In this document: piece after piece, positions 8,776 through 50,618 of the stretch
Layout: the number at the start of each line of letters is the position of its first letter
Position numbering within the stretch: the stretch's first letter is position 1
From: Candidatus Omnitrophota bacterium
GTDB taxonomy: Bacteria > Omnitrophota > Gorgyraeia > Zapsychrales > Fredricksoniimonadaceae
DNA length: 64,000 bases
Direction: 5' to 3'
Assembly (NCBI GenBank): GCA_015232565.1
Contig: JADFZK010000002.1
Location: forward strand, 64,935 to 128,934
Position numbers and translations under genes: made by a program
The notes under the pieces: model-generated
The model's input: the letters and a program-made list of their open reading frames with translations, nothing else
Databases searched by the model: none
Told to the model about the DNA's origin: nothing

Positions 8776-8994
8776 ATGACTGTTTATACGTATTCCAACG
8801 CTCGTCAAAATCTATCCAGAGTTCTCGACAAAGCCCGCAGGGAAGGGGAAGTGCTTATTAAACGCCAGGATGGCAGCCTGTTTTCTCTTAGGCGAGCATT
8901 GCCTGTTACGTCACCCCTTGATGTTACCGGCATCGCTACGAATATTTCCCGACATGACATCCTGGCCGCAGTCCGCGAATCACGTTCGCGCTGA
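8776..8994 (+). CDS. Orphan Phd/YefM-like antitoxin with no cognate toxin gene downstream
   Basis: 72 aa with N-terminal YSNARQNLSRVLDKARREGEVLIKRQDGSLFSL, an antitoxin-like fold signature. The RBS GGAGG lies 6 nt upstream. The downstream 290 nt contains only short repeats and no toxin-sized ORF. Confidence 0.5.
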   Translation: MTVYTYSNARQNLSRVLDKARREGEVLIKRQDGSLFSLRRALPVTSPLDVTGIATNISRHDILAAVRESRSR

Positions 8995-9090
8995 CGTTCT
9001 TAACATCCGTACCTGCGCTATTAAAACGTCATTGCGAGGAGCGAGCCAGTGTTTTCGTGTGGCGAGCGAAGAAGCAATCAACGTAAATAA

Positions 9091-9130
9091 TTCAATGTGT
9101 CCCGGTTTACTTCAATGTGTCCCGGTTTAC
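9091..9130 (+). repeat. Two tandem copies of a 20-bp unit, TTCAATGTGTCCCGGTTTAC
   Basis: Exact duplication at 9091-9110 and 9111-9130. A 17/20 inverted copy (AACCGGGACACATTGAA) is at 26214-26232. Confidence 0.8.
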
Positions 9131-9424
9131 TTAAGCCATTGTCCCGCAATGTTTTGTGTTTCTTCTGGTTTGTCGTAAATCAATCGCAAATCATTCTGAA
9201 AACACCTTGAATTCCTACCCGCTGTATGGTTAGATAGTGCATCTCCATCTATAAATTCTTTTTAAATTCTTATCTACTCAGGGTTGACTTTTTTCATGCC
9301 CTTATTTGAATACACTAAAAGATTTAACTTTTTAATAGCCCAACGCACGACCACTGTGACGTGTAAGCTATTGAACGCCTGCCGGCATGCCTTTTGCACC
9401 CCGTTAATTAATGATTTATTCATG

Positions 9425-9530
9425 TTCGTAGGGGCGGACTTTATGTCCGCCCGGCAATATGACGATTCTTCAATGCGTCAGACAAAAAACGTCATTACGC
9501 CGGGCGGACATAAAGTCCGCCCCTACGGAC
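9425..9530. repeat. REPIN/BIME-like element: two inverted REP-like hairpin units flanking a roughly 45-nt spacer
   Basis: Left arm CGTAGGGGCGGACTTTATGTCCGCCCGGC at 9427-9455. Right arm GCCGGGCGGACATAAAGTCCGCCCCTACG at 9499-9527 is its exact reverse complement. Each arm is itself a hairpin (GGGCGGAC/GTCCGCCC stem) next to a conserved GTAG. The spacer contains its own ATGACG...CGTCAT inverted repeat. Confidence 0.75.
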
Positions 9531-9721
9531 AGATAAGAATTCCATTACTTCACGCAATAGACCAGTTCCGCCCAGGCTTACATGTTGAAATTCCATCGCA
9601 TCGAATTATAGCCAAGGGCGAACCCGGCGCCCCGGTAGAGATTTCATCCCGTCGAACTTTAGCGAAGGTCGGGCCGAGCACCCTTGTGAACTCGCATTTG
9701 GCGTTGCGGGTGGTGGCGGGC

Positions 9722-22558: not shown

Positions 22559-22682
22559 TCTTTCCGCCTCCCGCACTTGTTTTTTGCCAATTCATATTAC
22601 ATACTTATACAGGTATGAGGCGCCTGCATGGATCTTACGCTGATCTTTGCGGCTTTTTAAAGCTCGTTGGGGGACCAGGGGA

Positions 22683-25600
22683 ATGCGTAGAATTGTTTCA
22701 CTAATTACAGTGTGCTGTTTTATTTTGAGCGGCAATGGTTTGCCGGCGGCTCTGGCGCAAAGTGTGATCCTGCCGGAACCCGGGCGCATGATCGCGCTCA
22801 GTCAACCCTTGACAGCTGTTACCCTCAAAGGGGTAAAGGTTTATGCTAATGATCCCTTGCGTCTGGATTTCATTATAGATAATAGTAACCTTGATCGTTC
22901 GCCTGTGTCCGATACAGGTGACCAGACCCGGCGGTATAAGGAAAGTCAGGCCGTCGAATCCCGGAAACTTATCAAATATTTTCTCGCCGCTCTAACAACT
23001 CCCGAGAAGGACCTGTGGGTCAATTTAAGCCCTTATGAAAAAGAACGCATTGTGCCGGAGGCTTTTGGCTTTACCGAGATGGGCCGCGACCTGCTGGCCC
23101 AGGATTATTTGTTAAAGCAGGTTACCGCGTCCTTGATCTATCCGGAAGGCGCTACCGGCCAGAAGTTCTGGTCCGAGGTATATCGCCAATCGTCAGCGCG
23201 CTACGGCACTACCGATATCCCAATCGATACCTTCAACAAAGTCTGGATCGTCCCCGCCCAAGCCACAATCTACGAAAACACCACAGCCGGCACAGCATAC
23301 ATAACCAAAAGCCGCCTAAAAATAATGCTGGAAACCGACTATTTAGCAACGTCGAATAAACCAATGCCAAACCCCACAATCGACCCAACCGAAATCACCA
23401 AGAACATCCTGCGCGAAATCGTGATCCCCGTACTGGAGAAAGAAGTCAACGAAGGCGCCAACTTTGCCCCACTCAGGCAGGTATATAATTCCCTGATCCT
23501 GGCGGCCTGGTTCAAAAAGAAAGTATCCGGTAACGCCCTGGACCAAGCGTTTGTGGACCGTAACAAGATCGGCGGCATAAACATCAATAACCCAAAAGAA
23601 CCCGGGCAGATCTGGTCCACCTACGTAGAAGCGTTCCAGAAAGGCGTATATAATTTCATCAAGGAAGAGATCGACGAGCCCACCGGCGAAGCTTTGCCGC
23701 GCAAGTATTTCTCCGGCGGAGCAGTGTTCGATAATAGCCAGCTTGATCCAGTACTGTCCTTCACTAAGGACGCCGCCGCGATATCCGGCCTGAGAGCCAA
23801 AGGCTTAACTTTGGTCGCCGCTTTATTAGGACTGGCAGGGGGGATGTATTATTTAAAAGCACCCACGCGCAACTTGCACAACGAAGCTTCGCCGCCAGAA
23901 ATTACCGTGAGCACTACCAATACCCGCACCGCTATGCCTGATCTCCCGAAAGCGCCGGCTTATCAGGGCGTAAACGGTTTTATGAATCTGGTGCTGGCGT
24001 CGACCGACAAAACCAATCTGTTCAATAACCTCAACATTAATATTACGGGCAAAGACCTTGCCAATCCGCAGATCTCCCGGGAAATGCGCGACGCCTTCAA
24101 CGCCGGGCTTAACCTGGAAATGGAAGAAGAGAGTTTTTCCTTCTTTATGCAACATTATTCCTTTGTGCGTTTTGAAACTATCGTTATGCAGATCCGCCTG
24201 GGCGATGCTTTCCAGAAAGCTATTGAAACATTTGCCGAAGAATTCCCATACCTCGACGGACAAATAATGCCCGATCGGGAAGCTTTCGGTGCCTGGATGG
24301 ACACACTGCTGTTGACCCATGAGCTGGGGCCCGAGACCTACCAGAAAAAGCTCCGTATGGTCTCAGAACTATTTCCCGATGATGTTCTGGTCTCGGCCTG
24401 TATAACTTTGAGGCAGAAAGATCCCCATTATCCTTTCTGGCGCATGATGAATAATTTTGTCAGACTTATCCATAAGTACGGCCAGGATGTGGAAAAGGCA
24501 AAAAACTCCTTACTAAAACTACCGTCCGAATTTGGCAATTTTACACTTCAGGACATTGCTAATATCTTTGCCGGTATTATGGATTACCCGCAGGAATATG
24601 TGGATCAGTTTGTTTCGAATGTTATGATCCGAAATCATTATTGCCTGGAATTATCGGTTGATCAATTAAAAGCTATGTCGGAAAGTTCATTTATCAGCTT
24701 TCTTACCTTTAACAGTACTTTTCGTGTTTTGATGCTTAAAAAGCCATTGGCGGCGGCTGTTTTCTTGCTTAACGAAGATCCGGGCCGCAGATTTGTTTAT
24801 GCTGACCAGGAACGATTGGCACAATTTCAGCTAGCCGCCGGTTTACCGGATAAGGAACTATTTAATCTACTTAACTGGAACTGGATCAAGATTGCCAACA
24901 AAGTTTCTTATGAAACACGTCAAAGATTGATTGCCATGGACAATGTTTCCTGGAGGCTGGAATTCGCATTAAACAATGTTATTCCCGGGTTCAATCCTGC
25001 TGACCCGTTTACAACGGCTAGCCTTGAGGTGGCATTAAAGCGTTATGGTAATGATTATAAGCGCCGTTTTGAGACATATGCCATCAACGATATTATCAAA
25101 GAAATGAATAAAGAAACCCGCGCACAACAAGAAACCAAATTGCGCGGACTTATAAGACAATACCTGCAAATGTCTTTTCAGGCCTCGGTTATGTCCCGCG
25201 AGAATGGTAAGAACAAGGAACTACAGGTTTTGCGTCAAAGGATCAATGATCTTACGACCATCATTAACACCCTGCGACATACTATCGACTCAGGAATCAT
25301 GGAGATTCATGAGCTATCTCTCCCAAATATTCCTGACACTAACAGTCCATTCTCTATGGAAAATATCTTACATCGCAACTCCGCGACTACTCCCGTAGAA
25401 GTAATTCCAACTACCCCCGAAGAAGCAATCCCAAAGACTCCCGCCACACCAGCCTGGACCGATTCTCCGGTGGTAGAAGAGAGCACCCCTGCGCCGAATC
25501 GAGTACCGCGCGCGGCGCCGCATGGGATCGGGACCAGAGACCAATTGCCAGAAACTCCTCCGTCGGAACCGGAACAGGGGGATCCAGTTCCGGGCTTCGA

Positions 25601-26210
25601 CCAACCGTCCGAAATGAATAATGTACCCCAGCCCACCGCGGAGCCTGAGCTCAATAATGAACCACAGCCACTTGAAACGTACCCAGGGGGGCCGGGGAAC
25701 TTATTACCACTTAATGCTTCACTAAATCCGATAGCTAATATGGGGGCAATAACGAAGGATCCGCTTGATCCGGTGCTCGATCTGATCGCCAATGGCCAGA
25801 TGCTATCAACGACGGGCGGCAATTATACTTTGCTTACATTCAGCGGTAAACTGGGGATCCGTATCAATAACCAGAATTCCGCGATCGAAACAATCTTTGA
25901 ATTTGGCCCGGATCAAGCCCCGGTTGAATTGAACATTACTGGCGAGCCAATGAAACGTATAACGGACAAAGTTAGTACCCGGCTGGCGGCCGCCGCTAAC
26001 GGGGTGGATCAGGCGGGACTCACGCCCGGTGGTATCGATCTTGGCTCCAGCGCTCAAAAAGTTATGATTAACGGCAACGGGCAAGGGAACATCACCGTCG
26101 CAATAAATCCGGCCTTACTACAACGCCTCCAAAACGCCTCAGGCCTTTTCCCGGTAGTCCTGGACAGCCAACCACTGGAAAGTTTAACGCGTTTTCTGGG
26201 TATTCAGTAA
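22683..26210 (+). CDS. Large secreted protein (about 1175 aa) with an unrecognised conserved N-terminal domain of roughly 350 aa, a predicted TM/hydrophobic segment, a helical middle, a Pro/Glu-rich linker and a C-terminal domain
   Basis: Signal peptide MRRIVSLITVCCFILSGNGLPAALAQ from the ATG at 22683. The N-domain is clearly homologous to the N-terminus of the 43101-48290 protein (shared LWVNLSPYEKERIVP, DLLAQDYLLKQ, YGTTDIPID..NKVWIVP, FAPLRQVY..LILAAW.KK, PRKYFSGG). A hydrophobic stretch LTLVAALLGLAGGMYYL follows. A low-complexity PTTPEEAIPKTPATP linker is present near residue 900. Confidence 0.7.
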   Translation: MRRIVSLITVCCFILSGNGLPAALAQSVILPEPGRMIALSQPLTAVTLKGVKVYANDPLRLDFIIDNSNLDRSPVSDTGDQTRRYKESQAVESRKLIKYFLAALTTPEKDLWVNLSPYEKERIVPEAFGFTEMGRDLLAQDYLLKQVTASLIYPEGATGQKFWSEVYRQSSARYGTTDIPIDTFNKVWIVPAQATIYENTTAGTAYITKSRLKIMLETDYLATSNKPMPNPTIDPTEITKNILREIVIPVLEKEVNEGANFAPLRQVYNSLILAAWFKKKVSGNALDQAFVDRNKIGGININNPKEPGQIWSTYVEAFQKGVYNFIKEEIDEPTGEALPRKYFSGGAVFDNSQLDPVLSFTKDAAAISGLRAKGLTLVAALLGLAGGMYYLKAPTRNLHNEASPPEITVSTTNTRTAMPDLPKAPAYQGVNGFMNLVLASTDKTNLFNNLNINITGKDLANPQISREMRDAFNAGLNLEMEEESFSFFMQHYSFVRFETIVMQIRLGDAFQKAIETFAEEFPYLDGQIMPDREAFGAWMDTLLLTHELGPETYQKKLRMVSELFPDDVLVSACITLRQKDPHYPFWRMMNNFVRLIHKYGQDVEKAKNSLLKLPSEFGNFTLQDIANIFAGIMDYPQEYVDQFVSNVMIRNHYCLELSVDQLKAMSESSFISFLTFNSTFRVLMLKKPLAAAVFLLNEDPGRRFVYADQERLAQFQLAAGLPDKELFNLLNWNWIKIANKVSYETRQRLIAMDNVSWRLEFALNNVIPGFNPADPFTTASLEVALKRYGNDYKRRFETYAINDIIKEMNKETRAQQETKLRGLIRQYLQMSFQASVMSRENGKNKELQVLRQRINDLTTIINTLRHTIDSGIMEIHELSLPNIPDTNSPFSMENILHRNSATTPVEVIPTTPEEAIPKTPATPAWTDSPVVEESTPAPNRVPRAAPHGIGTRDQLPETPPSEPEQGDPVPGFDQPSEMNNVPQPTAEPELNNEPQPLETYPGGPGNLLPLNASLNPIANMGAITKDPLDPVLDLIANGQMLSTTGGNYTLLTFSGKLGIRINNQNSAIETIFEFGPDQAPVELNITGEPMKRITDKVSTRLAAAANGVDQAGLTPGGIDLGSSAQKVMINGNGQGNITVAINPALLQRLQNASGLFPVVLDSQPLESLTRFLGIQ

Positions 26211-38281: not shown

Positions 38282-39670
38282 GTGGGATCACGTATTGAAA
38301 CCGACAGTATGGGTGAAGTAAAGGTGCCTTCCGACCGGTATTACGGCGCCCAGACCCAGCGCTCGCTGGAGAACTTTTGTATCGGCACAGAACGTTTTCC
38401 GCGGGAATTCATTCGCGCCTTGGGCCTGGTAAAGAAAGCCTCCGCTTTGGCCAATACCCGCTTAGGCCTGTTGGATGCCATTAAAGCCGAAGCGATTGCG
38501 GGTGCAGCCGACGAGGTCATAGCAGGCACCTGGGACGCGCATTTTCCGCTGGTCATCTGGCAAACCGGTAGCGGCACCCAAACCAACATGAACGCCAACG
38601 AAGTTATTGCCAATCGGGCCATAGAGCGCCTGGGGGGCGTGATCGGTGCGAAAAAACCGGTCCATCCCAATGATGATGTTAACAAAGGGCAATCTTCCAA
38701 CGATGTTTTTCCCACGGCCATGCACATTGCGGCCGCCGAAGTCTTAAGGTCCCTGTTGGTCCCGGCCCTCACCGACCTGGAAGGCGCCTTAACGGCCAAA
38801 GCGCTGGAATTTAAAGATATCGTAAAGCTCGGGCGCACCCATCTCATGGACGCTACTCCAATAACTTTAGGACAGGAGTTTTCCGGATACGCCCAGCAAG
38901 TGCACAATGCCGTGGAACGCCTGGAAAGTTGCTGGCCGCGGCTGTTGGAACTGCCGCTGGGAGGCACTGCCGTTGGTACCGGGCTCAACACTCATGTAGA
39001 TTTTGACCGTACGTCCATCCGCCTGATCGCCGAAATAACCGGGCTGGATTTTAAACCCGCGCGTAATAAGTTCGAGGGGATCGCCGCGCACGATGCTTTG
39101 GTAGAACTAAGCGGCGCCCTTAAAGCCACCGCTGTCGGGTTAATGAAGATCGCCAATGATATTCGCTGGCTGGCTTCCGGCCCGCGCGGCGCTATCGGCG
39201 AGATAGCTTTGCCGGAGAACGAGCCCGGCAGTTCCATTATGCCCGGAAAAGTCAACCCTACCCAGGCCGAAGCCCTGGCCATGGTCTGCGCGCAAGTAAT
39301 TGGTAATGATGTCACTATTACCATCGCGGGCGCGGGTGGGAATTTCGAACTGAATGTTTATAAACCGGTGATCATTTTTAATATTTTACAATCGCTAACT
39401 TTACTGGCGGGCGCTTCCGGCAGTTTCCAGGCCAAATGTATCAACGGAATTAGTCCGATGTCCCAGCGCATCAAGGCCCATCTTGATAATTCGTTGATGC
39501 TGGTTACCGCCTTAACTCCCGGCATTGGTTACGATAAAGCCGCCGAGGTAGCCAAGAAGGCCTGGCACGACGGGATAACTTTAAAAGAGGCCGCTGTGTC
39601 TTTAGGCGTTATTTCGGCCGAAGACTTCGACCGTATTGTGCGTCCGGAACGAATGGTAAAGCATTTCTAA
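38282..39670 (+). CDS. fumC: Fumarate hydratase class II
   Basis: GTG start. The N-terminal [24 protein letters not shown] and [18 protein letters not shown] match FumC. The lyase signature [13 protein letters not shown] is present. Confidence 0.9.
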
Positions 39671-39680
39671 GGAGTTTATT

Positions 39681-40034
39681 ATGCCAGTCAAAATGAAGAA
39701 CAAGGTCCCTGAGCGTCGTTGCGCCCTGCGTGCCGACCGGGTGATTGCGGTCCAACATCGCCTCATCAAGCGCAACGCCAAAAAGCTGGATAATAACTGG
39801 AGCCTTTCGACTACCCAGAACATGAGCGCCAGCGGAATGCTCTTTGTAAGTACCCAGCCCTATCAAACCGGGGATGTGATAGAAGTAAGCGTGGTGATGT
39901 CTGGCGTTATTGACGTGGTCAAAGGCAATGCGGAGGTAGTTCGGGTGACCGAAAGGGGCCATACTGCGTTCAATGTGGCGGTCAAGTTCATCGCCGAAAA
40001 ACCTAAAAACCGCCCGGCCAAGTCACACTTTTAA
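39681..40034 (+). CDS. PilZ-domain protein (putative c-di-GMP receptor)
   Basis: 117 aa with the RxxxR motif (ERRCALRADR) and D/NxSxxG motif (NMSASGMLF) at PilZ-typical spacing. Confidence 0.6.
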   Translation: MPVKMKNKVPERRCALRADRVIAVQHRLIKRNAKKLDNNWSLSTTQNMSASGMLFVSTQPYQTGDVIEVSVVMSGVIDVVKGNAEVVRVTERGHTAFNVAVKFIAEKPKNRPAKSHF

Positions 40035-40042
40035 TTCCGGCT

Positions 40043-41431
40043 TTATTTAGCTTTAAATTCCGCTACCAGTTTCTGCACGATATCTTTAGCATCACCAAAG
40101 ATCATGCGCGTATTGTCATAATAGAAAAGCTCGTTCTCAACCCCCGCAAAACCGGAAGCCATTGAGCGTTTAATTACAAAGACAGTCCGAGCCTTAAAGA
40201 CTTCTACAATCGGCATGCCAAATATCGGGGATGTTTTATCGTTGAGCGCCGCCGGGTTAACCGTGTCGTTGGCGCCGATCACTATGGCTACATCGGTAGA
40301 CTCCATTAACGGATTGGCTTCCTCCATCTCCAACAGCTGGTCGTAAGGAATATTGGCTTCGGCCAAAAGAACATTCATATGCCCGGGCATACGTCCGGCT
40401 ACCGGGTGAATGGCAAACTTGACCTCACAGCCATTACGCTCCAGCGCCAGAGTAAGCTCGCGGACCGCGTGCTGGGCCTGAGCCACGGCCATACCATAAC
40501 CAGGAGCAAAGATCACGGTCTTGGCGGCTTCCAGCACCAGCTGGGCGTCTTCTACCGATATCGCCTGCGCAGTTTTCTTCTCGCCACCAAGTTTCTTTTT
40601 TTGCACCTGGCCAAACCCGCCAAATATAACGTTAACCAGTGAACGGTTCATGGCTTTGCACATAATGATACTCAGGATGATACCATTAGCCCCCACCAAA
40701 GCTCCGACCACGATCAAAAGAGTGTTGTTAATAACAAACCCGGTGGTGCAGGCCACGATCCCGGAATAACTGTTCAATACCGAAATAACCACCGGCATAT
40801 CTGCGCCGCCGATGGGTATCACCAGCAAAACACCGAACAAGGCCGACAAGGCTAAAAAAGTATAAAAGAATAGTGTTTGCTGCGGATGCATCAGGAACAT
40901 TACCCCAGACGCAATAATGCCAACCAGAATGAGAAAATTGAGCCATTGCTGGCCGGCAAAAAGGATGGGACGGCCAGGCAGTCTTTCACTAAGTTTACCC
41001 CAGGCAATAATTGAACCGGTAAAGGTAAGAGCGCCAATTACAATAGAAAGAAAGAGCGCGAAGCCTTCCACCATGCCAATAGCGAAGACCGGCAGGCTTA
41101 ACAACTTTTCATAATGCACCCAATCCACAAAAACACTGGCCAAAGCTCCGCAACCGTGCAGAAGCGCGATCATTTCAGGCATTTGGGTCATCGCGGCCCG
41201 CAGGGCAACGAAAGTACCGCAAACCGCACCGATCACCAGCCCCAGCAGTATCCACTGATAGCCAATAACGTGCTGGCCGGCCAGAGTGGCCAATACTGCC
41301 AACAACATACCGGTAGATGATAGCAGGTTGCCGCGCCGCGCGGTCACCGGTGAAGAAAGGAACTTGAGCCCGAAAGCAAAAAGTATCGAAGCGACTATGT
41401 AAGTTATCTGGACCAGAAATGAAAGGTTCAT
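40043..41431 (-). CDS. pntB: NAD(P) transhydrogenase beta subunit
   Basis: 462 aa. The N-terminal membrane domain MNLSFLVQITYIVASILFAFGLKFLSSPVTARRGN is characteristic of PntB, and a C-terminal NADP(H)-binding domain is present. Confidence 0.9.
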   Translation of the reverse strand: MNLSFLVQITYIVASILFAFGLKFLSSPVTARRGNLLSSTGMLLAVLATLAGQHVIGYQWILLGLVIGAVCGTFVALRAAMTQMPEMIALLHGCGALASVFVDWVHYEKLLSLPVFAIGMVEGFALFLSIVIGALTFTGSIIAWGKLSERLPGRPILFAGQQWLNFLILVGIIASGVMFLMHPQQTLFFYTFLALSALFGVLLVIPIGGADMPVVISVLNSYSGIVACTTGFVINNTLLIVVGALVGANGIILSIIMCKAMNRSLVNVIFGGFGQVQKKKLGGEKKTAQAISVEDAQLVLEAAKTVIFAPGYGMAVAQAQHAVRELTLALERNGCEVKFAIHPVAGRMPGHMNVLLAEANIPYDQLLEMEEANPLMESTDVAIVIGANDTVNPAALNDKTSPIFGMPIVEVFKARTVFVIKRSMASGFAGVENELFYYDNTRMIFGDAKDIVQKLVAEFKAK

Positions 41432-41724
41432 TACGCGCCATCCTTCTTTTTAAACATTTTAAGCATTCTTTCGGTAACCAGATAACCGCCTACCACGTTA
41501 AAAGCCGCCAGCGCTACCGCCGCGGTCCCCAGAACAATGGTAAAAGGAGACTCGGCTTCCACGCCAGCGGCGATAAGGGCCCCCACGATGATTATCCCGC
41601 AAATAGCATTCGCTTCCGACATTAAGGGCGTATGCAACAGGGGAGGGACTTTGCTTATAAGAGCAAAGCCCAGAAAGATCGACAAGGCCAAAATAAATAA
41701 TTGGTAAACCAACGGATCGTTCAT
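41431..41724 (-). CDS. pntA: NAD(P) transhydrogenase alpha subunit part 2 (membrane PntAB)
   Basis: 97-aa three- to four-TM protein located between the pntA part 1 gene and pntB. Its stop overlaps the pntB start. Confidence 0.8.
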   Translation of the reverse strand: MNDPLVYQLFILALSIFLGFALISKVPPLLHTPLMSEANAICGIIIVGALIAAGVEAESPFTIVLGTAAVALAAFNVVGGYLVTERMLKMFKKKDGA

Positions 41725-41741
41725 AATCGTTCTCCAAACAC

Positions 41742-42875
41742 TTACTTGTTGAGTGAACTATTAACAATTGCACCCTGATGGGTGATCAGGCAACCTTTAA
41801 TGATGTCATCCGCCAGATTCATTTCCAGCGTACTTTTTTCTTTATTCCAGGAATGTTCGATAAAGTTAACAAAATTGGCCGACAACATTTCGCTGGCGTC
41901 GATAGCGGCTTTACCCGGCATGTTAACCAGGCCGATTATCCGGACGCCATTAATGTCTACTTCCTGGCCCGCCTGCGCGCCTTCCACATTTCCACCCGAC
42001 TCAACGGCCAGGTCCACGAGGATACTGCCGGGTTTCATTCCGGCCACCATCTCTTTGGTGATGATCACCGGAGCTTTGCGCCCAAAAAGCTGGGCCGTGG
42101 TGATAACAATATCCGAGGCCGCGCAAATTTTGCTCATGCCGTCGCGTTGCCGGGCCAATTGCTCGGGAGTCAAGGCCTTGGCATAACCATCCTTGGTCTG
42201 GCCGGTCTCACCCAGGTCGATCTCGATGAATTTGGCGCCCAGGGATTGCACCTGTTCTTTAACCACCGGACGCGTATCAAAAGCTTCCACCCGTGCGCCC
42301 AGACGCTTGGCAGTCGCGATCGCCTGCAAGCCCGCCACCCCGGCGCCAACAATAAATACCCGGGCGGGGGGGATAGTGCCGGAAGGTGTAGTCATCATAG
42401 GGAAAATCTTTTTACTGCGTTCGGCCGCCAGGATCACCGCGGCATAACCCGCCAGGCTGGCCTGGGAACTTAAAGCATCCATCTTTTGCGCGAGAGTGGT
42501 ACGCGGGATCATTTCCAGTGAAATAGCCGAGACCTGTTTCGCGGCCAGGACATTTATAAGTTCTTTCTCGTTGAAAGGATCGAGGAAGCTTACATGGATA
42601 ACGCCGGGTTTCATTAAACCGATCTCGGCTAACGACGGTTTACGGACCCGCAAAAGCACATCGGCAGTTTTGAGGATATCTTCACGAGTTTGCAGTTTGG
42701 CTCCCGCTTTAAGGTAAGCGGCATCACTAAAAAACAGATCACTGCCCAACCCAGGCTCAATACTGACCTCAGCACCCTTTTTAACCAGTTTGGCCGTGGT
42801 CAAAGGCGTAAGCGCAACCCGATTCTCACCAGGAAAAGTTTCCTTTATTACACCGATCTTCATAGCTCTCCCCAA
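41742..42875 (-). CDS. pntA: NAD(P) transhydrogenase alpha subunit part 1 (alanine dehydrogenase-like dI domain)
   Basis: 377 aa with MKIGVIKETFPGENRVALTP and the Rossmann motif VFIVGAGVAGLQA. Confidence 0.9.
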   Translation of the reverse strand: MGRAMKIGVIKETFPGENRVALTPLTTAKLVKKGAEVSIEPGLGSDLFFSDAAYLKAGAKLQTREDILKTADVLLRVRKPSLAEIGLMKPGVIHVSFLDPFNEKELINVLAAKQVSAISLEMIPRTTLAQKMDALSSQASLAGYAAVILAAERSKKIFPMMTTPSGTIPPARVFIVGAGVAGLQAIATAKRLGARVEAFDTRPVVKEQVQSLGAKFIEIDLGETGQTKDGYAKALTPEQLARQRDGMSKICAASDIVITTAQLFGRKAPVIITKEMVAGMKPGSILVDLAVESGGNVEGAQAGQEVDINGVRIIGLVNMPGKAAIDASEMLSANFVNFIEHSWNKEKSTLEMNLADDIIKGCLITHQGAIVNSSLNK

Positions 42876-43100
42876 ATCAATTAGCTTCCATTGCGGTCTA
42901 TTCTCGATCTTCTATTACTCTGAACATTTCTTGAGCAAAAATGAAATTGGTTTTTTCAACAAGATACAGTACCAAATATGTTTACAAAGTCAAGTTTGCT
43001 GTGGGCGGAAAAATGACCCAATCTTGAATAATCTACGCAAGCACCCATCTAGCAACATTCTTTTGCATTCTATTCATACAAATGTTATATTTTTAATATT

Positions 43101-46100
43101 ATGTTTAGCATATTAAGCCAATTAATATTTTGTCGCTGGATCGCGATATTCCTGACCGGGGTCTTACTTCTGCAATCCTCAGGGGTTGCTCTGGCGGCGG
43201 AAATCATTTCGTCAGGATCCCCACTGGCCGCATCCATATACACAATACGCCAGCCAGCACTGCCGCAATTAAAAGGCCTGATTCTTAACCGTCAGGATCC
43301 GCTCAAGCTGGCTTTTATTCTATCCGGAGAGGGCGCTAGTGAACCGGCCACTTTGGATCCGGTTGCCGGACGGCGTTTGGCCGGGTATTTTCTGGCCGCA
43401 CTGGCTATTTCCGATAAAGACATCTGGGTCAATCTTTCCGCATTCGAAAAAGACCGTACCGTGCCGCCAGCCTTGGGAACCACGCCACTGGGGCAGGACA
43501 TGCTGGCGCAGGATTACCTGCTTAAACAGCTCACTTGCGAACTCACCAATCCCGACACTGCCCAGGGACGTGTTTTCTGGAACAAGATCTACGCCGCACT
43601 TAACAAACGTTTTGGCACCACTGACCTCCCGGTGGACCTGGTGAACAAAGTCTGGATCTTGCCGGAGAAAGCAGTGGTATCACGCAGGGGAAATGCGGTT
43701 TATGTAGTAGAACAAAAACTTAAAGCCATGACTGAAACAGACTATTATGCTCTCCGCCGATCGGGGGCACTAGCCCCCAATGATACCCAAGATATCTCCA
43801 ATACGGTTTTACGCGAAGTGATCCTTCCGCTAATTGATCAGGAGATCAACAACGGCGTGCAATTTGCACCATTACGCCAAATCTACAAAGCCATGATCCT
43901 GGCGGCCTGGTATAAAAAAAACCTGCGCCGATCCATTCTGGGCTCTGCATACGCCGACCAAAGCGCGGTAAACGGGATCCGTGCAACAGATCCAACAGCC
44001 AAAGAACACATCTATACTGCCTACCTGGAATCATTTCGCCAGGGAGCCTACAACTTAATTCGCGAGGAGCAAGACGCCTCGTCCGGAGAAAATATCGCCC
44101 GAAAATATTTCTCCGGCGGCCTAAGCGGACTGGGGCCCCAGGATTTCAGCGAGATCAGCAGCAGGTCGTTAACTTCGTACCAACAAAAACAAACGGCCAG
44201 GCCTGGTGATATTATAATGGGAGTGCAACTGCGTACTCTTGATTTTGCAGGGGATACTCTTGCTGATGAAGTCAAACTTTCCGATTCACTAACTGAAGAC
44301 ACCAGGCTATGGCAGCAAATCTTTCAACCAATTGATGAGTCGGCAATCAGAGTAAATAGTTTCTTATCAGCAACAGGGGCCAATGATTCACCAAATCAGC
44401 GTTTGTTTGATATATTGCTATACGACGAACTGCGTCTGGTAAAGAAACGAATGGATTTTGGATATCTTAAGTCTGGCACTGCGCACTTATCTGTTGATTA
44501 TTTTGACGGAATGATCCGGGCGATTGACCGGATCTTGATAACATTAAGTACCCTGCCGGCAAATTCAGCCTCGTTACAAGTTGGAATACAATGGTCGATC
44601 CAGGCGGTACAACAGTCACTAAAACCATCTTATGCGAACAACCCGGATTTGCAAGCTGGCCGCGGATTACAGTTCGTCATTAATTCTCTGCGCGGCATTT
44701 CAACTCAACACTACCGATCATTTCTTAGAATGAAACGTTATCTTGCACTTCTAAGAGAAAATTACGCACTCCCTACAACCTCTTTAAATCCGTTAAAGAC
44801 CGCGAACATCGCTGAAGATGAAAGAATGTGGTCTATAGCGGATCAATTAAACAACCAATGGGTTGCAGTACAAAATATTGTTTCGCGCGGTATCGCTGAT
44901 ATCCAATATGCAGGAGGGACAAGTCATTTCATTGGTGAAGCCCTGGATGAGATATTCAGTGCCTTTCAGGTTGCTAAGAATCGGGACTATATGTATCCCA
45001 AACAAGCCACATATATTGAAACCAGGCTTGCTCTTTTACAAGAAACACTGGAAAAGTGGAGCGATCCCGGCGAAGAACTTGCCAACAGGCAATGGGCAAT
45101 TGGGATCCTACGAAATGCCCGTAGACTGACACCAGCTGAAAAAGAAGATGCAGTCAAAAGAATCTCGACGGCCAAATTCATTCTAAGAAATGGTCTGAAG
45201 GTTATGGGACCGAACATCAAAGAAGCATTGGAAATTCTGAATAAAAGCCATTTCTTTCAGAACGCCGAGGCAGTTATTGAATATTTCAGCCAGCGAGATA
45301 GATCAATCAGCACTCGAACCGATTGGGATATTAATTCATCGGTTTTCGCTAACTGGACTTCAGTGAATCCTATTACGGTTCCGCCTACTCTTGAGACTGA
45401 CCCAATTGACATCGTTGCTTTGCCTGGCTATCTTCGTATACCAATTGTACAAAAAGCGGATGTGCTTCTTCAATCGGGATGGAATGGTAATCTGACGGCT
45501 TCAGTTGAGCAGTATCTAAAAACTTATTCGAGTTCGACCCTGTCGCCAGAAGCATATATGGCAATCAACGGGTTTGCCAGAAATGCCTCCCAACACAGAC
45601 AGACTGTGACAGTAGGTGACAAGATTATCTCTGGTACAGATTTCAATTCTTACCCTCAACTTCTGGCCCAGTTGCTGGATTTCTCATTATGGCGCTTGGC
45701 GGGCATAGATCCGTTTAGTGATGTTGGTAGCCGCCTGGCGGCTGTTTACCCTGCTATTGGGGTTAACGGAACCCAAAGAATCGGTCAAAAGGATGTAAAC
45801 GATAAATCCAGGATTATTACCGAGTTTATCGAAAGTTTAAATGCAGACATTGAAATTCGTGAAGCTTTTCTTAAGATAATGGACGCTTTTCTGACATTAA
45901 TATTCAATGATCAAATGTTCCGTCAACAGATCGATCCACGGGCAGGCCGGGGGGATGAGCATGAATATGGGCTGGTCTGGCCAGGTCAATTCTGGAGTAA
46001 CAGTACTGTCGATCAACTTGATCAATTGCCGGGCTTCGACCTGATCCAATATAAAGCCAAGTTCAATGAAGCTACCGCAGTATTTGTTTCTCGTATTCGT

Positions 46101-48290
46101 GAGCTTTTACCGTACAGACTATATTTGGCTAAACAATCCGGGCATATAAATATAGAGCCAATAATTAGTCGGGTGTTCAACGATAGCACAGGCAAGATCA
46201 AGTGGCGCCAATGGCATGTAGATCGTATTTATGAAACACTTCTGGCAGTAAAAGCACAAGGCATGTCGGAGGAAGCTGATGCGCTCTGGGAAGCGTTTAA
46301 ATCTAAACTAAGCACTATCGATCCCGCCGAAATAATTGCCCGCTCTTTTGACTCTGCTGGTAATTCTTTGCAGATGACTGCCGCAGAAGACCAACTGGTA
46401 CGTGAATGGTTAGACAGGAATAATCTTAAATGGCCAGTACCCCCGGATGTTGCAAATCTTACCCAAAGCGAACGGCTCAAATTTCTTACCCGATATTTGC
46501 TGAACCTTTACAAAATCATACCCAAATTTGATGATCATAAATGGCCGGTACAAATTCAGTATCCGTTAATTACTGAAGATCAACTCAAATTCCCGGGGCT
46601 TGGTGATACTTTTTCCTGGAGCAAAGTGGACACCTGGCAGAATTGGTTTATGCATACCTGGCCGGCGAATTTAACACTTTTCAACGGAGGAATTGAATTT
46701 ATCATTCCCGAGATAGAAAAATTGGAGAATGGGACCACGAAAGATCCGAATGGAACTATTAGTCAAATAGCAGAATATTTCACGTATGTTACAGAATCCA
46801 TGTATGACGTTACTACAGTTATTAATATGCTATCTGACATGCAGGGGGCCATTATAAATAATACATTCCGCACTAAATGGCCCGAAGGTATTGGGATTGG
46901 TTCCCCGATCAAGAGCGAAGATAAGTCCAACTGGTTTATCTACCAGATATTCAATGCTCACTCCAATGCGATAACACATCGCGCTGTTTTAAAGAAGATC
47001 GTTCTGGAGTTAGACCGTATTCGCCCAGATTGGAATGTTGCACTAAATGAGTTCAACCAATGGATCGCTAAAATAATGTTTCCTCATCCGGAATGGCAGC
47101 AAAATCTAAGAAAAGCTCAGATAGAGTTTGAGAATAATCAACAACTCCAAAAGGCCCGTTCCAGACAATCCCTCAGGACCGAAGCGTTAAGCGCGATATC
47201 AGAGCTGGTCGATCAAAGAAAGCAGGAAGCAAAAGAAAGATTGCATGCTCAGAATTTAATTGAATGGGCCCGGGCGCAGGCGCGTGGGGAGGCTTCTTTA
47301 ATGTTGCCACCGGTTTGGAGTGCTGATAACACCAGACTTGGAGAATTAAACAACCGAAACCGGGTTATTACACTAACGCCGGAAGTAGCCTATGTTATAG
47401 AAGAGATGACAAATCGTGATTATCCAATCGTTTTTAGAATTTTTAAAGATGCGGTACGCCATAAGGCCGGAATAGCAGGCAATAGCAAAGAATGGAAAGC
47501 TTTTGAACATATTTTCTATTCCAATCCTGACGCGGATGAACTTGCCGAGATGATAAAACGCTTCGACCTGCTTTTGGCGCTTACGCCAGCTGAGCAGATG
47601 AAATTCCTCGCTATGTACGAACGATATAACAGGGCCGGTTATTTCATTTTATATGAAGCTCAACTTTACGATTTTTATATTGATCGAAATGACCTTTTTA
47701 TTCAGGCCATCTTTGGCAAAGGCCATGGTTGGGAATTTATACCAGTTGCGAATAAACTAGGCCGCCTCAGAAAACTATTTCTTGATACCGACGCCCGGTC
47801 ATCTTTTGAATTAAGCTTTACAAATCATATGGCAACGATGCACGCCCATATTCGCGCCAATAATCTCACTCCGGCTATCAAGATTTGCATCTGGGTCGTA
47901 GAAAGATTCAAGAGATCTAAACTTTCTACTCCGTTACCACGAATATTAGCTCTGCTGGATAAAATCGCCTCAAATGAGCCAGCGCTCACCGCTCGTTGCA
48001 ATAATGTTAAATCGGCGCTTATCGATCAAGTAACAGGTTCAAATCCTAAGACGATGGACGGTCAATCACGAAAAAGGTTACCCACAGATTCAGCCGAAGG
48101 GCTTAAAGGCGGGATCGATTTCGCCGCTATGGGGTATACAATTAATGAGAACACGGAGAATCTGGATCTAGCCTGGCCGTCAGTTTGGCCATATGGCGGC
48201 AAGCCTCTTAATGACCTTACCCCTATAATTATCGGATATGCGCGCGCGTCAACATTACCCGGATTGATCCGGCCAGCTATTGCAAATTAG
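43101..48290 (+). CDS. Very large secreted protein (1729 aa) sharing the unrecognised N-terminal domain with the 22683-26210 protein, followed by about 1350 aa of mostly helical sequence of unknown function
   Basis: Signal-peptide-like N-terminus MFSILSQLIFCRWIAIFLTGVLLLQSSGVALAA. The N-domain motifs IWVNLSAFEKDRTVP, DMLAQDYLLKQ, FGTTDLPVD..NKVWILP, FAPLRQIYKAMILAAWYKK and ARKYFSGG align with the paralog. It is transcribed divergently from pntA part 1, with a 225-nt AT-rich intergenic region between them. Confidence 0.7.
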   Translation: MFSILSQLIFCRWIAIFLTGVLLLQSSGVALAAEIISSGSPLAASIYTIRQPALPQLKGLILNRQDPLKLAFILSGEGASEPATLDPVAGRRLAGYFLAALAISDKDIWVNLSAFEKDRTVPPALGTTPLGQDMLAQDYLLKQLTCELTNPDTAQGRVFWNKIYAALNKRFGTTDLPVDLVNKVWILPEKAVVSRRGNAVYVVEQKLKAMTETDYYALRRSGALAPNDTQDISNTVLREVILPLIDQEINNGVQFAPLRQIYKAMILAAWYKKNLRRSILGSAYADQSAVNGIRATDPTAKEHIYTAYLESFRQGAYNLIREEQDASSGENIARKYFSGGLSGLGPQDFSEISSRSLTSYQQKQTARPGDIIMGVQLRTLDFAGDTLADEVKLSDSLTEDTRLWQQIFQPIDESAIRVNSFLSATGANDSPNQRLFDILLYDELRLVKKRMDFGYLKSGTAHLSVDYFDGMIRAIDRILITLSTLPANSASLQVGIQWSIQAVQQSLKPSYANNPDLQAGRGLQFVINSLRGISTQHYRSFLRMKRYLALLRENYALPTTSLNPLKTANIAEDERMWSIADQLNNQWVAVQNIVSRGIADIQYAGGTSHFIGEALDEIFSAFQVAKNRDYMYPKQATYIETRLALLQETLEKWSDPGEELANRQWAIGILRNARRLTPAEKEDAVKRISTAKFILRNGLKVMGPNIKEALEILNKSHFFQNAEAVIEYFSQRDRSISTRTDWDINSSVFANWTSVNPITVPPTLETDPIDIVALPGYLRIPIVQKADVLLQSGWNGNLTASVEQYLKTYSSSTLSPEAYMAINGFARNASQHRQTVTVGDKIISGTDFNSYPQLLAQLLDFSLWRLAGIDPFSDVGSRLAAVYPAIGVNGTQRIGQKDVNDKSRIITEFIESLNADIEIREAFLKIMDAFLTLIFNDQMFRQQIDPRAGRGDEHEYGLVWPGQFWSNSTVDQLDQLPGFDLIQYKAKFNEATAVFVSRIRELLPYRLYLAKQSGHINIEPIISRVFNDSTGKIKWRQWHVDRIYETLLAVKAQGMSEEADALWEAFKSKLSTIDPAEIIARSFDSAGNSLQMTAAEDQLVREWLDRNNLKWPVPPDVANLTQSERLKFLTRYLLNLYKIIPKFDDHKWPVQIQYPLITEDQLKFPGLGDTFSWSKVDTWQNWFMHTWPANLTLFNGGIEFIIPEIEKLENGTTKDPNGTISQIAEYFTYVTESMYDVTTVINMLSDMQGAIINNTFRTKWPEGIGIGSPIKSEDKSNWFIYQIFNAHSNAITHRAVLKKIVLELDRIRPDWNVALNEFNQWIAKIMFPHPEWQQNLRKAQIEFENNQQLQKARSRQSLRTEALSAISELVDQRKQEAKERLHAQNLIEWARAQARGEASLMLPPVWSADNTRLGELNNRNRVITLTPEVAYVIEEMTNRDYPIVFRIFKDAVRHKAGIAGNSKEWKAFEHIFYSNPDADELAEMIKRFDLLLALTPAEQMKFLAMYERYNRAGYFILYEAQLYDFYIDRNDLFIQAIFGKGHGWEFIPVANKLGRLRKLFLDTDARSSFELSFTNHMATMHAHIRANNLTPAIKICIWVVERFKRSKLSTPLPRILALLDKIASNEPALTARCNNVKSALIDQVTGSNPKTMDGQSRKRLPTDSAEGLKGGIDFAAMGYTINENTENLDLAWPSVWPYGGKPLNDLTPIIIGYARASTLPGLIRPAIAN

Positions 48291-48385
48291 TTTAGTATTT
48301 CTTGGTATTTCTTGAATTTTGATCTCGAGCATGTTATATTATAGCTAGATTGGCTAGATTTATATTACTGAAAGGAATGCTTATG

Positions 48386-48661
48386 AAAACACTTGCGAAT
48401 AAAGTATACCGTCCCAACCCGAAGGCGTGGAATTTGGCCGATGCCAAGAACAGGTTCAGTGAAGTAGTGGGACTGGCGCTGCAGCAAGGGCCGCAAACGG
48501 TCTCCAGACGGAACGAAAGAGTGGTCATCATTTCGGAACGGGCCTTTCAAAAACTGACCGGGGTTGAACATACTTTTCTTGACTTCATTTTCAAAGGTCC
48601 GGGCCTGGACGGAGTCGACCTTACCCGCGACAAAGCGCTATCCAGAAAGATCTCGTTATGA
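48386..48661 (+). CDS. Type II antitoxin of the Phd/YefM family
   Basis: MKTLANKVYRPNPKAWNLADAKNRFSEVV...RRNERVVIIS is Phd/YefM-like. RBS AAGGA. Overlaps the downstream PIN toxin gene by 4 nt. The ORF-track start at 48350 is an upstream extension. Confidence 0.6.
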   Translation, partial: KTLANKVYRPNPKAWNLADAKNRFSEVVGLALQQGPQTVSRRNERVVIISERAFQKLTGVEHTFLDFIFKGPGLDGVDLTRDKALSRKISL

Positions 48662-49089
48662 AAGCTCTCCTTGATACCTGCATTATCTCACATATATATC
48701 GTGCGCACAGATCCGAACGCCTTAAGCACTTTCTGCACTCTATTGGCGAAGAGAACTGTTTTATTAGCGTGGTGACTCTGGGTGAGATAATTAACGGTAT
48801 TCATCAACTGGATGAAGGCAAGAAAAAGAAAGACCTGTTAGTTTGGGGCGAACAATTTGAATCAAAATACAGCGATCATCTTTTGCCAATTAATTCCGGT
48901 GTTGCCCGGGTATGGGGCGAATTAACCGCCAGGACAAAAAGAATCGGAAAAAACATACCGGTGGCCGATGGCTTGATCGCAGCAACAGCTCTTTATAATG
49001 GCCTGCATGTAATTACCGAGAATGTTAAAGATTTCGAACCCACTGGCGTCCAAGTCATAAATCCATATATCAATGTTACCAATCAATGA
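48658..49089 (+). CDS. vapC: PIN-domain toxin VapC
   Basis: 143 aa. MKALLDTCIISHIY with conserved D6, E(LGEII), and D(VADGLIAATA) and D(KDFE) of PIN. Confidence 0.8.
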   Translation: MKALLDTCIISHIYRAHRSERLKHFLHSIGEENCFISVVTLGEIINGIHQLDEGKKKKDLLVWGEQFESKYSDHLLPINSGVARVWGELTARTKRIGKNIPVADGLIAATALYNGLHVITENVKDFEPTGVQVINPYINVTNQ

Positions 49090-49194: not shown

Positions 49195-49761
49195 ATGAAA
49201 GCAGTTATTGTTTTTCACTCGGTATGCGGGAATACTTATTTAATTGCCCGGGCTTTTGAGAAAGCTTTGTTAAATGGCGGGCATCAGGTGGTTTTGCGGC
49301 GGGTAGTAGACAGCGATTGGGTTGAGAAACCGGATGTGGCCGGCGATGTGCTGGCCAGTTTGCGCGCTATGCGCGCTTTACCGGAGGCCAAGCCCGACGA
49401 TCTGCTTTCTGCCGATATCATCCTGATGGGCTCACCGGTCTATTTCGGCAATGTCTCCGCAGAACTGAAAGCCTTTATGGACTCAACCGGCGGTTTGTGG
49501 TTCCAGGGTAAACTGGTCGGCAAGAAATTCGCGGCTTTTGTTTCGGCAGGTAATCCCGATGGCGGGGGGGACCTTACTCTTGCGGTCTTGCACACTTATG
49601 CCAAATACATGGGCCTGCTATCACTACCATTGCCTATAACCGTGCTCCAGGGCGATAATGGCAATGCCTTAGGCATTATCCAGTACTCAAATGGCAAACT
49701 TTCCGCCACTCTTGACGACAAAACTTCCCGATTGATCGACAGATGGAGCCGCACTATATGA
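49195..49761 (+). CDS. Flavodoxin-like fold NAD(P)H:quinone oxidoreductase/FMN reductase (WrbA-like)
   Basis: MKAVIVFHSVCGNTYLIARAF at the N-terminus and ILMGSPVYFGNVSAELKAFMD (the flavodoxin-like FMN site). Confidence 0.7.
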   Translation: MKAVIVFHSVCGNTYLIARAFEKALLNGGHQVVLRRVVDSDWVEKPDVAGDVLASLRAMRALPEAKPDDLLSADIILMGSPVYFGNVSAELKAFMDSTGGLWFQGKLVGKKFAAFVSAGNPDGGGDLTLAVLHTYAKYMGLLSLPLPITVLQGDNGNALGIIQYSNGKLSATLDDKTSRLIDRWSRTI

Positions 49762-50618
49762 CCATGACCATGCCGGTAACCAGTGAAGAACAACGTAAAT
49801 ACTTGCGTTTCGATACCGATGTCAAGATCCACTTCCATGTGCCTTACGAATTCCGCACCGAGGTCGATTTCTCGCTAAAACAAGTGCCGCTGGCCGAGAA
49901 ATACATCGGCTTCTCAAAGAATATTTCCGCCTATGGGCTGTGTTTTGAAGCCAATAAAGAAGTGCATATCGGCGGGCAACTTTGGCTCGAATTACACCTG
50001 CCGGAGAGCAAGGACATCATTTATATGCAAGGCATCGCCCGCTGGTGCCAGCTCAGTGTGCTAGCGCCCGAACGGCCGAAGATGTACTTGATCGGTGTCG
50101 AAGTGCTGGTGGTGGACGGAGTGAACGTGGAACAAACCACCTATTTCGACCAGAAATACGGCATTGTCTGGAGCGAACTTTTGGAACGGGTGTTAGGCAG
50201 TTACGCCCAGCTTCATAAAAAGAACTTTGCCGTCACCGTATTGCGCGGGATACTCAAGGAAAATGGCCGCTATCTGATGGTAAGGCGTTCTGCAAACTGT
50301 ACCACCTTCACTAACAAATGGGAATTCCCCGGCGGTAAAGTAATTGCCGGCGAACATACCTCGGCCGCCCTTAAACGCGAGTTCCAGGAAGAAGTCGCGC
50401 TCGAGATCGCGCCTTTAAAACGCTTTATGGACTTTACCCTGGAGCGCGCCGAAGGCAATGTGGAATACAAGATCTTCTTTGTGCAACGCGTTTCGGGCGA
50501 GCCGGCCTTAAGCGAAGAGCACGACAAACTGGGCTGGTTTTCGCCTGAAGAAATGAGAGAGCTGGACATTTCACCGCCGCTGTTGGACGTGGTGTCCCGG
50601 CTGATCAACGAAAGCTGA
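49758..50618 (+). CDS. PilZ-like N-terminal domain fused to a NUDIX hydrolase
   Basis: N-terminus RKYLRFD ... NISAYGLCF (PilZ RxxxR and DxSxxG-like motifs). C-terminal Nudix box GGKVIAGEHTSAALKREFQEEVAL. Overlaps the upstream gene. Confidence 0.65.
   Translation: MTMTMPVTSEEQRKYLRFDTDVKIHFHVPYEFRTEVDFSLKQVPLAEKYIGFSKNISAYGLCFEANKEVHIGGQLWLELHLPESKDIIYMQGIARWCQLSVLAPERPKMYLIGVEVLVVDGVNVEQTTYFDQKYGIVWSELLERVLGSYAQLHKKNFAVTVLRGILKENGRYLMVRRSANCTTFTNKWEFPGGKVIAGEHTSAALKREFQEEVALEIAPLKRFMDFTLERAEGNVEYKIFFVQRVSGEPALSEEHDKLGWFSPEEMRELDISPPLLDVVSRLINES

Follow-up and report, generated by a model that had tools for sequence, protein, structure and literature searches.

Cargo proteins of the type IX secretion system (T9SS) of the Bacteroidota occur as dozens of paralogs per genome and carry a conserved C-terminal sorting domain of ~80 aa. 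The Omnitrophota are abundant, uncultured nanobacteria whose biology has been deduced almost wholly from genomes, and their oversized multi-enzyme proteins are an open puzzle. In this work, an open reading frame (ORF) at positions 43101–48290 of a 64,000-nt stretch of DNA from a Candidatus Omnitrophota bacterium (contig JADFZK010000002.1; hereafter the window, whose numbering is used for all positions) was analysed and compared with described systems. The product of this ORF, hereafter the target, corresponds to HQL20_01100 (100% identity, 100% coverage), a 'hypothetical protein' of a Candidatus Omnitrophica metagenome-assembled genome (MAG). Judging from its sequence, it is a member of a large modular family that is restricted to the Omnitrophota and apparently undescribed. 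The architecture of the family is a signal peptide, a conserved head of ~310 aa, a hypervariable cargo and a conserved tail of ~55 aa.

The family resembles the T9SS cargos in being confined to a single phylum, with many paralogs per genome, a Sec signal, a variable functional part and a short C-terminal domain. However, neither the target nor 42 head+tail constructs matched the models of the T9SS C-terminal domain (CTD; Pfam Por_Secre_tail, NCBIfam TIGR04183 and TIGR04131), the tail is shorter (~55 aa), and T9SS cargos have no counterpart of the large conserved N-terminal domain found here. A conserved domain of ~300 aa directly behind the signal peptide, heading long variable proteins, is a feature of the TpsA proteins of two-partner secretion (TPS), but the TPS domain is a right-handed beta-helix (PF05860) while the head was modelled as mixed alpha/beta with no Pfam hit, no TpsB-like gene adjoins the target, and TpsA proteins lack a conserved C-terminal tail. 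RTX adhesins share conserved modules at both ends, the C-terminal one of ~60 aa, and the Gly-Gly-x-Asp start of the tail recalls the RTX nonapeptide; on the other hand, type I substrates have no N-terminal Sec signal, whereas the target has signal-peptide features, and a single GGID is present in the target instead of tandem GGxGxDxUx repeats, with no Pfam RTX match. The NCBIfam models for sortase, exosortase and rhombosortase signals (LPXTG, PEP-CTERM, GlyGly-CTERM) gave no sorting-signal hit, and the last 100 residues of the target contain no hydrophobic window, the top Kyte-Doolittle windows being at residues 14, 917, 478 and 771. As for autotransporters (type V), no Pfam hit was obtained, the tail has only ~55 aa, and the head model is not a barrel and has no fold match in the PDB.

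Polymorphic toxins have in common with the family the trafficking-like conserved parts, the hypervariable payload, cassette replacement, tandem paralogs and a deviant DNA composition of the payload. They differ in that their payload is C-terminal and here it is central, with housekeeping-type enzymes among the payloads. No toxin Pfam domain was found in the cargo of the target, which may yet hold a toxin of unrecognized type, and no immunity gene is adjacent; the Phd/YefM–PIN genes downstream are an autonomous toxin–antitoxin pair. The giant or 'archaeovorin' proteins belong to the same phylum, and in passages of the two reports on them signal peptides are common and cytoplasm-type enzymes are predicted to be extracellular (10.1101/2023.11.21.568195; 10.64898/2026.06.07.730766). 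Domains named in those passages are shared with the family: phosphoglucomutase, TIM, aldolase, PPDK, ROK kinase, starch synthase, methyltransferase, HATPase, receiver and HEAT. The giant proteins are described there as having 10,000–147,000 aa, tens to more than 100 transmembrane (TM) helices and SecA-like domains, in contrast to the 950–2800 aa, one head and one tail of the family studied here. Set against that class (>10,000 aa, many TM helices, SecA_DEAD-like domains), the target has 1729 aa, no TM helix after the signal and no SecA Pfam hit, and neither head nor tail is mentioned in the searched passages of both reports. The idea that giant proteins are concatenated head–tail units was considered but is not supported: no long multi-head protein and none longer than 2796 aa was found among the 120 best head matches (not an exhaustive set), and head motifs are absent from P0130 (5128 aa), which is related to cargo module B. 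By these features the target is not a T9SS-CTD, sortase-type, TPS, RTX, autotransporter or giant protein. By analogy, its head–tail logic resembles that of known sorting-signal systems.

The features of the target and of the related protein encoded in the window are the following.

43101..48290, + strand: target ORF; ATG start, 1729 aa plus stop codon; complete.
43101..43196, + strand: predicted Sec signal peptide; residues 1–32, MFSILSQLIFCRWIAIFLTGVLLLQSSGVALA then AE; rule-based reading.
43197..44120, + strand: head domain; residues ~33–340, C-terminal end RKYFSGG.
44121..48107, + strand: variable cargo; residues 341–1669.
45300..46346, + strand: cargo module A; residues ~734–1082, C-terminal motif QWHVDRIYETLLAVKAQGMSEEADALWEAF; common to 9 other representative proteins.
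46608..47195, + strand: cargo module C; residues ~1170–1365; one weak relative (P0131, E 3.9e-8).
47220..47882, + strand: cargo module B; residues ~1374–1594; common to 5 representative proteins.
48108..48287, + strand: C-terminal tail; residues 1670–1729, GGIDFAAMGYTINENTENLDLAWPSVWPYGGKPLNDLTPIIIGYARASTLPGLIRPAIAN; divergent subtype shared with P0002 and P0004.
22683..26210, + strand: in-window paralog; 1175 aa; signal peptide, head, hydrophobic segment, unrelated cargo, Pro-rich linker and main-type tail.

The initial annotation had treated these two proteins as a pair of paralogs; they are in fact part of a phylum-wide Omnitrophota family of >1000 proteins. When the entire target was used as query, 1157 significant protein matches (clusters) were obtained. 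The 120 listed matches, self excepted, aligned via the head only, over 16–30% of the query; they are 950–2800 aa long and the named ones are nearly all from Omnitrophota/Omnitrophica. In a scan of one genome per GTDB species, at least 583 head loci were confirmed, and the best 80 of them were used for the locus-level statistics (taxonomy, tandems and tail presence). All 80 are in Omnitrophota-type MAGs, a few of which are labelled 'uncultured Planctomycetales', and one locus is a 4.9-kb contig in a 'Lysobacterales' bin. Up to 6 of these 80 loci came from a single MAG, and two head-bearing genes in same-strand tandem were found at 12 loci, listed below. Five ORFs had more than one match to the tail model described further on. 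No description of the head or the tail was found by full-text literature search, which covered passages of Omnitrophota papers.

Tandem loci: L007, L012, L022, L033, L042, L044, L060, L064, L065, L071, L072, L079.

Among the invariant motifs of the head are WVNLS.(Y/F)E, (A)QDY.LKQ, NKVWI, N.G..F..LRQ and YF.GG. About 45 columns were invariant among 42 head sequences, with the C-terminal end (K/R)YFSGG. The target has every invariant column of the 42- and 46-sequence head alignments (E 1e-76 to 1e-129 against relatives), and the series that identifies the family, WVNLS.(Y/F)E, QDY.LKQ, NKVWI, LRQ and (K/R)YF(S/T)GG, lies directly past its N-terminal signal. An AlphaFold model of a construct joining head and tail of the target, based on a 46-row alignment, had a pTM of 0.76 and a pLDDT mostly of 85–95 across residues 50–335; the modelled head is of mixed alpha/beta type, with three beta-hairpins and about ten helices. 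Compared with the PDB by Foldseek, this head model gave no solved match (best E 0.07, TM ≤0.2), and no match was found in BFVD. The head+tail profile retrieved no PDB sequence even at E ≤10, and no recurrent family appeared when 42 members were scanned singly against Pfam. Alpha-pore-forming toxins (NheA/SmhA) were considered as relatives of the head and were taken as noise (Foldseek E 0.3–3, TM ~0.1). The head is confidently modelled, but no relative of it could be detected in Pfam, NCBIfam or the PDB.

The consensus of the tail over ~55 aa is GGIDL-x12-G-x7-D-x3-L-x7-G-x2-PVI-x2-I-x-P-x7-LG. The tail was present in 103 of 121 database relatives, and GG(I/V/L)D was located 40–105 residues from the end in ~100 of 120. 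A hidden Markov model (HMM) was built from 99 tails, from which the proteins of the window and the two closest relatives of the target were excluded. In an independent sample of genome loci, it matched (E ≤1e-3) 66 of the 69 ORFs from the best 80 loci that were C-terminally complete, head-bearing and of at least 600 aa, and the match finished a median of 7 residues ahead of the stop. The initial annotation had reported GGID(L/F) about 55–60 aa from the C-terminus of both window proteins and had made this similarity depend on a wider family alignment. Both motifs begin exactly 60 aa from the end, and the similarity held in the wide alignment. The paralog has a main-type tail (GGIDL...LFPVVLDSQPLESLTRFLGIQ), matched by the HMM with E 2e-12 at ORF residues 1129–1187. 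In the target, GGIDF is the sole GG[IVL]D in 1729 aa; LTPIII lies 41 aa past it and the terminus is ...LPGLIRPAIAN, in agreement with the family pattern of a GGI(D/N) start, an (L/F)xP(V/I)(I/V) core ~40 aa on and an end few to ~40 residues before the stop.

Against the target, the plain HMM gave 3.2 bits only, which is not significant, with an alignment running end to end at the correct place; because of this score, its tail was assigned to a divergent subtype, GGID(F/L)..(L/M)G(F/Y).(V/I).E....LDL.WP......P.LN.LTP(I/V)(I/V).G......(L/V)PGL, formed by the target, P0002 and P0004. The tails of this clade aligned with the main tail profile over 53 columns (hhalign; probability 94.7%, E 6.3e-8). 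It is highly improbable that the target is an ordinary lineage-specific hypothetical protein whose C-terminal resemblance to the paralog is a chance short motif. The low HMM score would agree with such a reading, as would the fact that the two tails of the window were not detected pairwise by BLAST, but it is already contradicted by the end-to-end profile–profile match, by the single motif at the family-standard distance from the end, by the retention of the tail with P0002 and P0004 despite unrelated cargos, and by the 66 of 69 independent ORFs. Judged from these alignments, the GGID motif is real and homologous, in a variant form in the target. The tail could be an export or sorting signal, as the initial annotation proposed.

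Searched against a 5.8-billion-protein set, the tail profile retrieved only fragments of 48–105 aa. One 'tail-only' ORF of 73 aa (P0140) follows a gene of >1700 aa and a separate Response_reg ORF, and this region (L081 1–6222) looks like one family gene that stop codons or frameshifts have split. In the databases, short 'tail' proteins are probably for the most part fragments of split genes or contig-end pieces.

The N-terminus of the target is built like a cleavable Sec signal peptide, with R12, a hydrophobic core (Kyte-Doolittle 2.0 at residue 14) and VALA|AE. The same features (basic n-region, short hydrophobic core and small-x-small site) were recognized by rule in 104 of 106 full-length N-termini, the usual form of the cleavage site among relatives being (Y/F)A|Q. 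From these features, the target may be secreted.

The comparison of the target with the in-window paralog, whose ORF extends over 22647..26210 with a probable start Met at 22683, agreed with the initial annotation in most points. By BLASTP, target residues 12–340 aligned with paralog residues 3–346 (39% identity, E 3e-76) and the remainder was unaligned, so that the N-domain of ~340 aa is indeed common to both; tblastn detected no third head copy in the window. The TM helix of the paralog is absent from the target, as had been stated: beyond the N-terminal hydrophobic stretch, no 19-aa Kyte-Doolittle window exceeds 1.25, versus 1.46 at residue 364 of the paralog (GLTLVAALLGLAGGMYYL; hydrophobic segment ~364–382). 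The Pro-rich linker is also missing: Pro reaches at most 9% in any 120 aa of the target, against 22.5% for the paralog. The cargo had been described as ~1350 aa of non-repetitive helical sequence with no recognizable enzymatic motif. Self-BLAST of the cargo gave the identity match only, therefore it has no internal repeats, and the target matched no family of Pfam or NCBIfam at E ≤1. Its helical nature is weakly supported, since the single-sequence AlphaFold model of residues 470–1669, with 47 helices and no strands, is of low confidence (mean pLDDT 36).

Head and tail are passed on jointly, with cassette-like replacement of the cargo that they enclose. The pairwise identity matrices of heads and tails were correlated (Mantel r 0.69; none of 999 permutations gave a higher value), and P0002 and P0004 have both the nearest heads and the nearest tails to those of the target. 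BLASTP of the target against P0002 yielded one high-scoring segment pair (HSP) in the head (14–378, 59% identity) and one in the tail (1663–1723, 44%, E 5e-10), and against P0004 a head HSP at 110–439 and a tail HSP at 1613–1727 (E 3e-14); no HSP was found with either over the 1250–1650 aa of cargo. In the family, 78 of 103 cargos had no BLASTP match to any other cargo. In the target gene, the cargo has a G+C content of 0.432 (GC3 0.402), against 0.519 for the head (GC3 0.551), 0.506 for the tail and 0.50–0.52 for neighbouring genes; the drop starts at ~nt 44200–44300, where the closest relatives cease to be homologous. The pattern fits an exchange of the middle for DNA that is foreign or evolves differently, the ends staying fixed. 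Insertion of the cargo at the Gly-Gly of a once contiguous ancestor (...KYFSGG|IDL...) was also considered and rejected, as no minimal members of ~400 aa were found; a 404-aa ORF in L030 consists of a head and a short end that is unrelated.

A related MAG (L014) is syntenic with the window (L014 3850–13006 versus window 38282–48290), its pntB being 89% identical and its homologue of ORF 38282 67% identical. It has a different family member, of 2240 aa, between the homologue of ORF 39681 and pntB, while the member of the window is on the other side of pntAB; therefore family genes turn over or move at this locus.

The cargo of the target is nearly an orphan, and its composition is unlike that of its own head and tail. 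It has no sequence relative in the PDB, and no catalytic signature could be recognized in it. A word-indexed search with residues 351–1669 retrieved the protein itself only, and phmmer with residues 400–1599 against 1.84 billion representatives retrieved 15 other proteins, with no relative for residues 400–733. By sequence similarity, the cargo has some counterparts elsewhere, as two or more of its rare modules recur in other multidomain proteins that are assigned to the Omnitrophota. Module A aligned with P0003 over 342 aa (27% identity, E 4e-30) and is also present in P0121, P0124, P0126, P0127, P0128, P0006, P0132 and P0133. Module B is present in P0122, P0123, P0125, P0129 and P0130, some of which have 2057, 2330 and 5128 aa. 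Among the module relatives, P0003, P0006 and P0126 are members of the head–tail family, and P0122, P0125, P0128, P0130, P0131 and P0133 are of a second architecture: their hydrophobic N-terminus is of another kind and precedes an S(I/L)FNPI-like motif, and their conserved C-terminal domain, which ends in ...AA or ...SA, is different as well. This second 'bookend' architecture encloses multi-enzyme cargos of up to 5128 aa. The cargo modules shared between it and the target suggest a common module pool. In those proteins, the neighbours of the modules are DnaJ, HATPase_c, PCMT and other methyltransferases, HTH_8, APH and Response_reg.

In more than half of the 120 best relatives, the middle lacks any Pfam domain. 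The Pfam content of the cargos is extremely diverse and includes repeats (HEAT, WD40, TPR), enzymes (PPDK/PEP-utilising, ROK kinase, NAD synthase, GAPDH+TIM+aldolase, phosphoglucomutase, UDP-glucose pyrophosphorylase, NDK, adenylate kinase, methyltransferases and GNAT) and other domains (HAD, subtilase, DnaJ, receiver domain and acyl-CoA dehydrogenase).

With moderate confidence, and from sequence features, we propose that these proteins are exported by Sec, with head and tail acting as shared handling modules around a variable payload. The N-terminal signal would route the polypeptide through Sec, and head and tail would be common modules that target, anchor or hand over the intervening payload to a conserved partner in the cell envelope, by which it would be attached to the surface or outer membrane or exported further along a dedicated route. 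A comparable logic would be that of a Sec signal with the C-terminal domain of T9SS cargos, or of a retention module at the N-terminus with a signal at the C-terminus. The payload of the target would be non-enzymatic and probably all-alpha, with at least three rare Omnitrophota modules, and most likely devoted to binding or scaffolding and not to catalysis. More tentatively, head and tail might be the two recognition handles of an undescribed sorting or delivery pathway specific to the Omnitrophota. Several observations weigh against this export proposal. Many cargos are cytoplasmic ATP- or NAD-dependent types (GAPDH+TIM+aldolase, PPDK, NAD synthase, ROK, adenylate kinase, DnaJ, receivers, HATPase), which are expected to work poorly outside the cytoplasm and are awkward for simple secretion. 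A hydrophobic segment right after the head is present in ~15% of members, the in-window paralog included; if it spans the membrane, cargo and tail are on the side opposite to that of members without the segment, which is hard to square with a single function of the tail. The signal-peptide calls are rule-based, no secretion, sortase, peptidase or processing gene adjoins the target, and the placement of the tail in the head+tail model is not confident (pLDDT 50–75). Finally, the co-variation of head and tail could mean physical interaction, but common descent explains it equally well.

Because of the cytoplasm-type cargos and the extra hydrophobic segment, two other readings stay alive. The proteins could be membrane-tethered on the cytoplasmic side, the N-terminal helix being an uncleaved anchor or packing onto the head, and head and tail organizing enzymes or scaffolds at the inner membrane as a metabolon or scaffold system. 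This is possible, if rather doubtful: a repertoire overwhelmingly of cytoplasm type (glycolytic enzymes, PPDK, NAD synthase, kinases, methyltransferases, DnaJ, CheY-like receivers, HATPase), the company of modules A and B (DnaJ, HTH_8, PCMT, APH, Response_reg) and the high AlphaFold pLDDT of the N-terminal helix agree with it, and in a passage of one report giant Omnitrophota proteins with a matching Pfam repertoire are read as inner-membrane-anchored with cytoplasmic domains (10.64898/2026.06.07.730766). Nevertheless, the hydrophobic core has basic residues ahead of it and none in the ~25 aa behind it, the core is short (12–15 aa), and 104 of 106 members have a small-x-small site after it, usually (Y/F)A|Q; this pattern marks a cleaved N-in signal peptide and not an N-out anchor, and members with a second hydrophobic segment after the head are topologically sensible only if the head is outside. 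It is unlikely that the family is a polymorphic effector arsenal, in which head and tail are the trafficking domains of a dedicated route, the payloads of a host-dependent or predatory nanobacterium are delivered onto or into a host or prey cell, and the cytoplasm-type cargos act in the cytoplasm of that cell. It would account for trafficking-like conserved termini, a cassette-like middle of foreign-looking composition, many paralogs per genome and tandem arrays; passages of the literature describe the Omnitrophota as mostly host-dependent and possibly predatory (PMC10066038), and extracellularly predicted glycolytic and PPDK domains as a known puzzle of giant 'archaeovorin' proteins (10.1101/2023.11.21.568195). 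However, no immunity-like gene adjoins the target and the downstream pair is an ordinary Phd/PIN toxin–antitoxin module, the variable part is central where that of classical polymorphic toxins is C-terminal, no toxin domains occurred among the 120 best relatives, and no delivery machinery is linked in the window. Less likely still is a self-assembling surface coat, in which the tail binds the head of another molecule, in dockerin–cohesin or donor-strand style, and chains or a lattice display the cargos. The strong co-variation of head and tail subtypes, with the target clade distinct in both, the short, beta-prone, C-terminal and docking-module-like tail, and the name 'coated coccus' given to Velamenicoccus in a passage of PMC10066038 are in line with it, but the uncertain tail placement in the model speaks against it and, again, common descent would equally produce the co-variation.

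The region upstream of the target had been described as an AT-rich divergent spacer of 225 nt shared with pntA. It is divergent and AT-rich (33.8% GC), and its length was measured as 237 nt (42864–43100); pntA (41742–42863) and pntB are upstream and divergently transcribed. The predicted TTGCAT-N17-TATATT site, placed about 10 nt ahead of the ATG, was found at 43063–43091, 9 nt from it, and can equally be read as the following feature.

43062..43091, + strand: promoter-like site; TTTGCA-18-TATATT with TG extension; 9/12 match; promoter status unproven.

The spacer contains 17 promoter-like sites versus 11.3 ± 3.8 in shuffled sequences, which is not above chance. A Shine-Dalgarno-like motif ≤25 nt upstream of the start was seen in ~10 of 28 larger genes of the window, and translation initiation in the source organism seems largely Shine-Dalgarno-independent. 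The suggestion of a leaderless mRNA is unsupported, because the promoter match is at chance level and most genes of the window have no Shine-Dalgarno motif, its absence being the rule there.

Downstream of the target, a Phd/YefM antitoxin and PIN toxin pair (48350–49089, + strand) is followed by unrelated housekeeping genes. On L081, an unrelated metagenome contig, the split family gene is followed by HicAB and RelE modules (6556–9878). Toxin–antitoxin neighbours may be a coincidence in genomes rich in such modules. Elsewhere in the window, an ORF of 3146 aa (9284–18724, + strand) is T/G/S/N-rich and beta-helix- or adhesin-like, with three near-identical segments of ~90 aa (TW..LN(I/L)Q(S/T)DLDQTLPS(G/D)ETYG.LQLGR(F/Y)S..GGTI(F/Y).MGSTI.G(N/D)WTVD(A/S)DATV...), and is probably a large surface protein. 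Another ORF (49743–50618, + strand) joins an N-terminal PilZ domain to a C-terminal NUDIX hydrolase domain.

The unit formed by signal peptide, head, exchangeable cargo and tail spans more than 1000 proteins without a Pfam or NCBIfam model or a structural relative in the PDB, and carries the same odd cytoplasm-type enzyme repertoire as the giant proteins of the Omnitrophota. The family is a clean natural case of cassette-like domain exchange between fixed termini, with a compositional scar visible in the target. Head and tail, both short and well delimited, lend themselves to reporter fusions, which makes localization and handling directly testable. If they are the recognition handles of a sorting or delivery pathway, hundreds of payloads would be exported, including complete cytoplasm-type enzymes and fast-evolving orphan modules like those of the target, with a surface coat, or a host or prey cell, as their destination. 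In that case, the head would be a new fold with a new function, and the family would be the single-unit counterpart of the giant multi-enzyme proteins.

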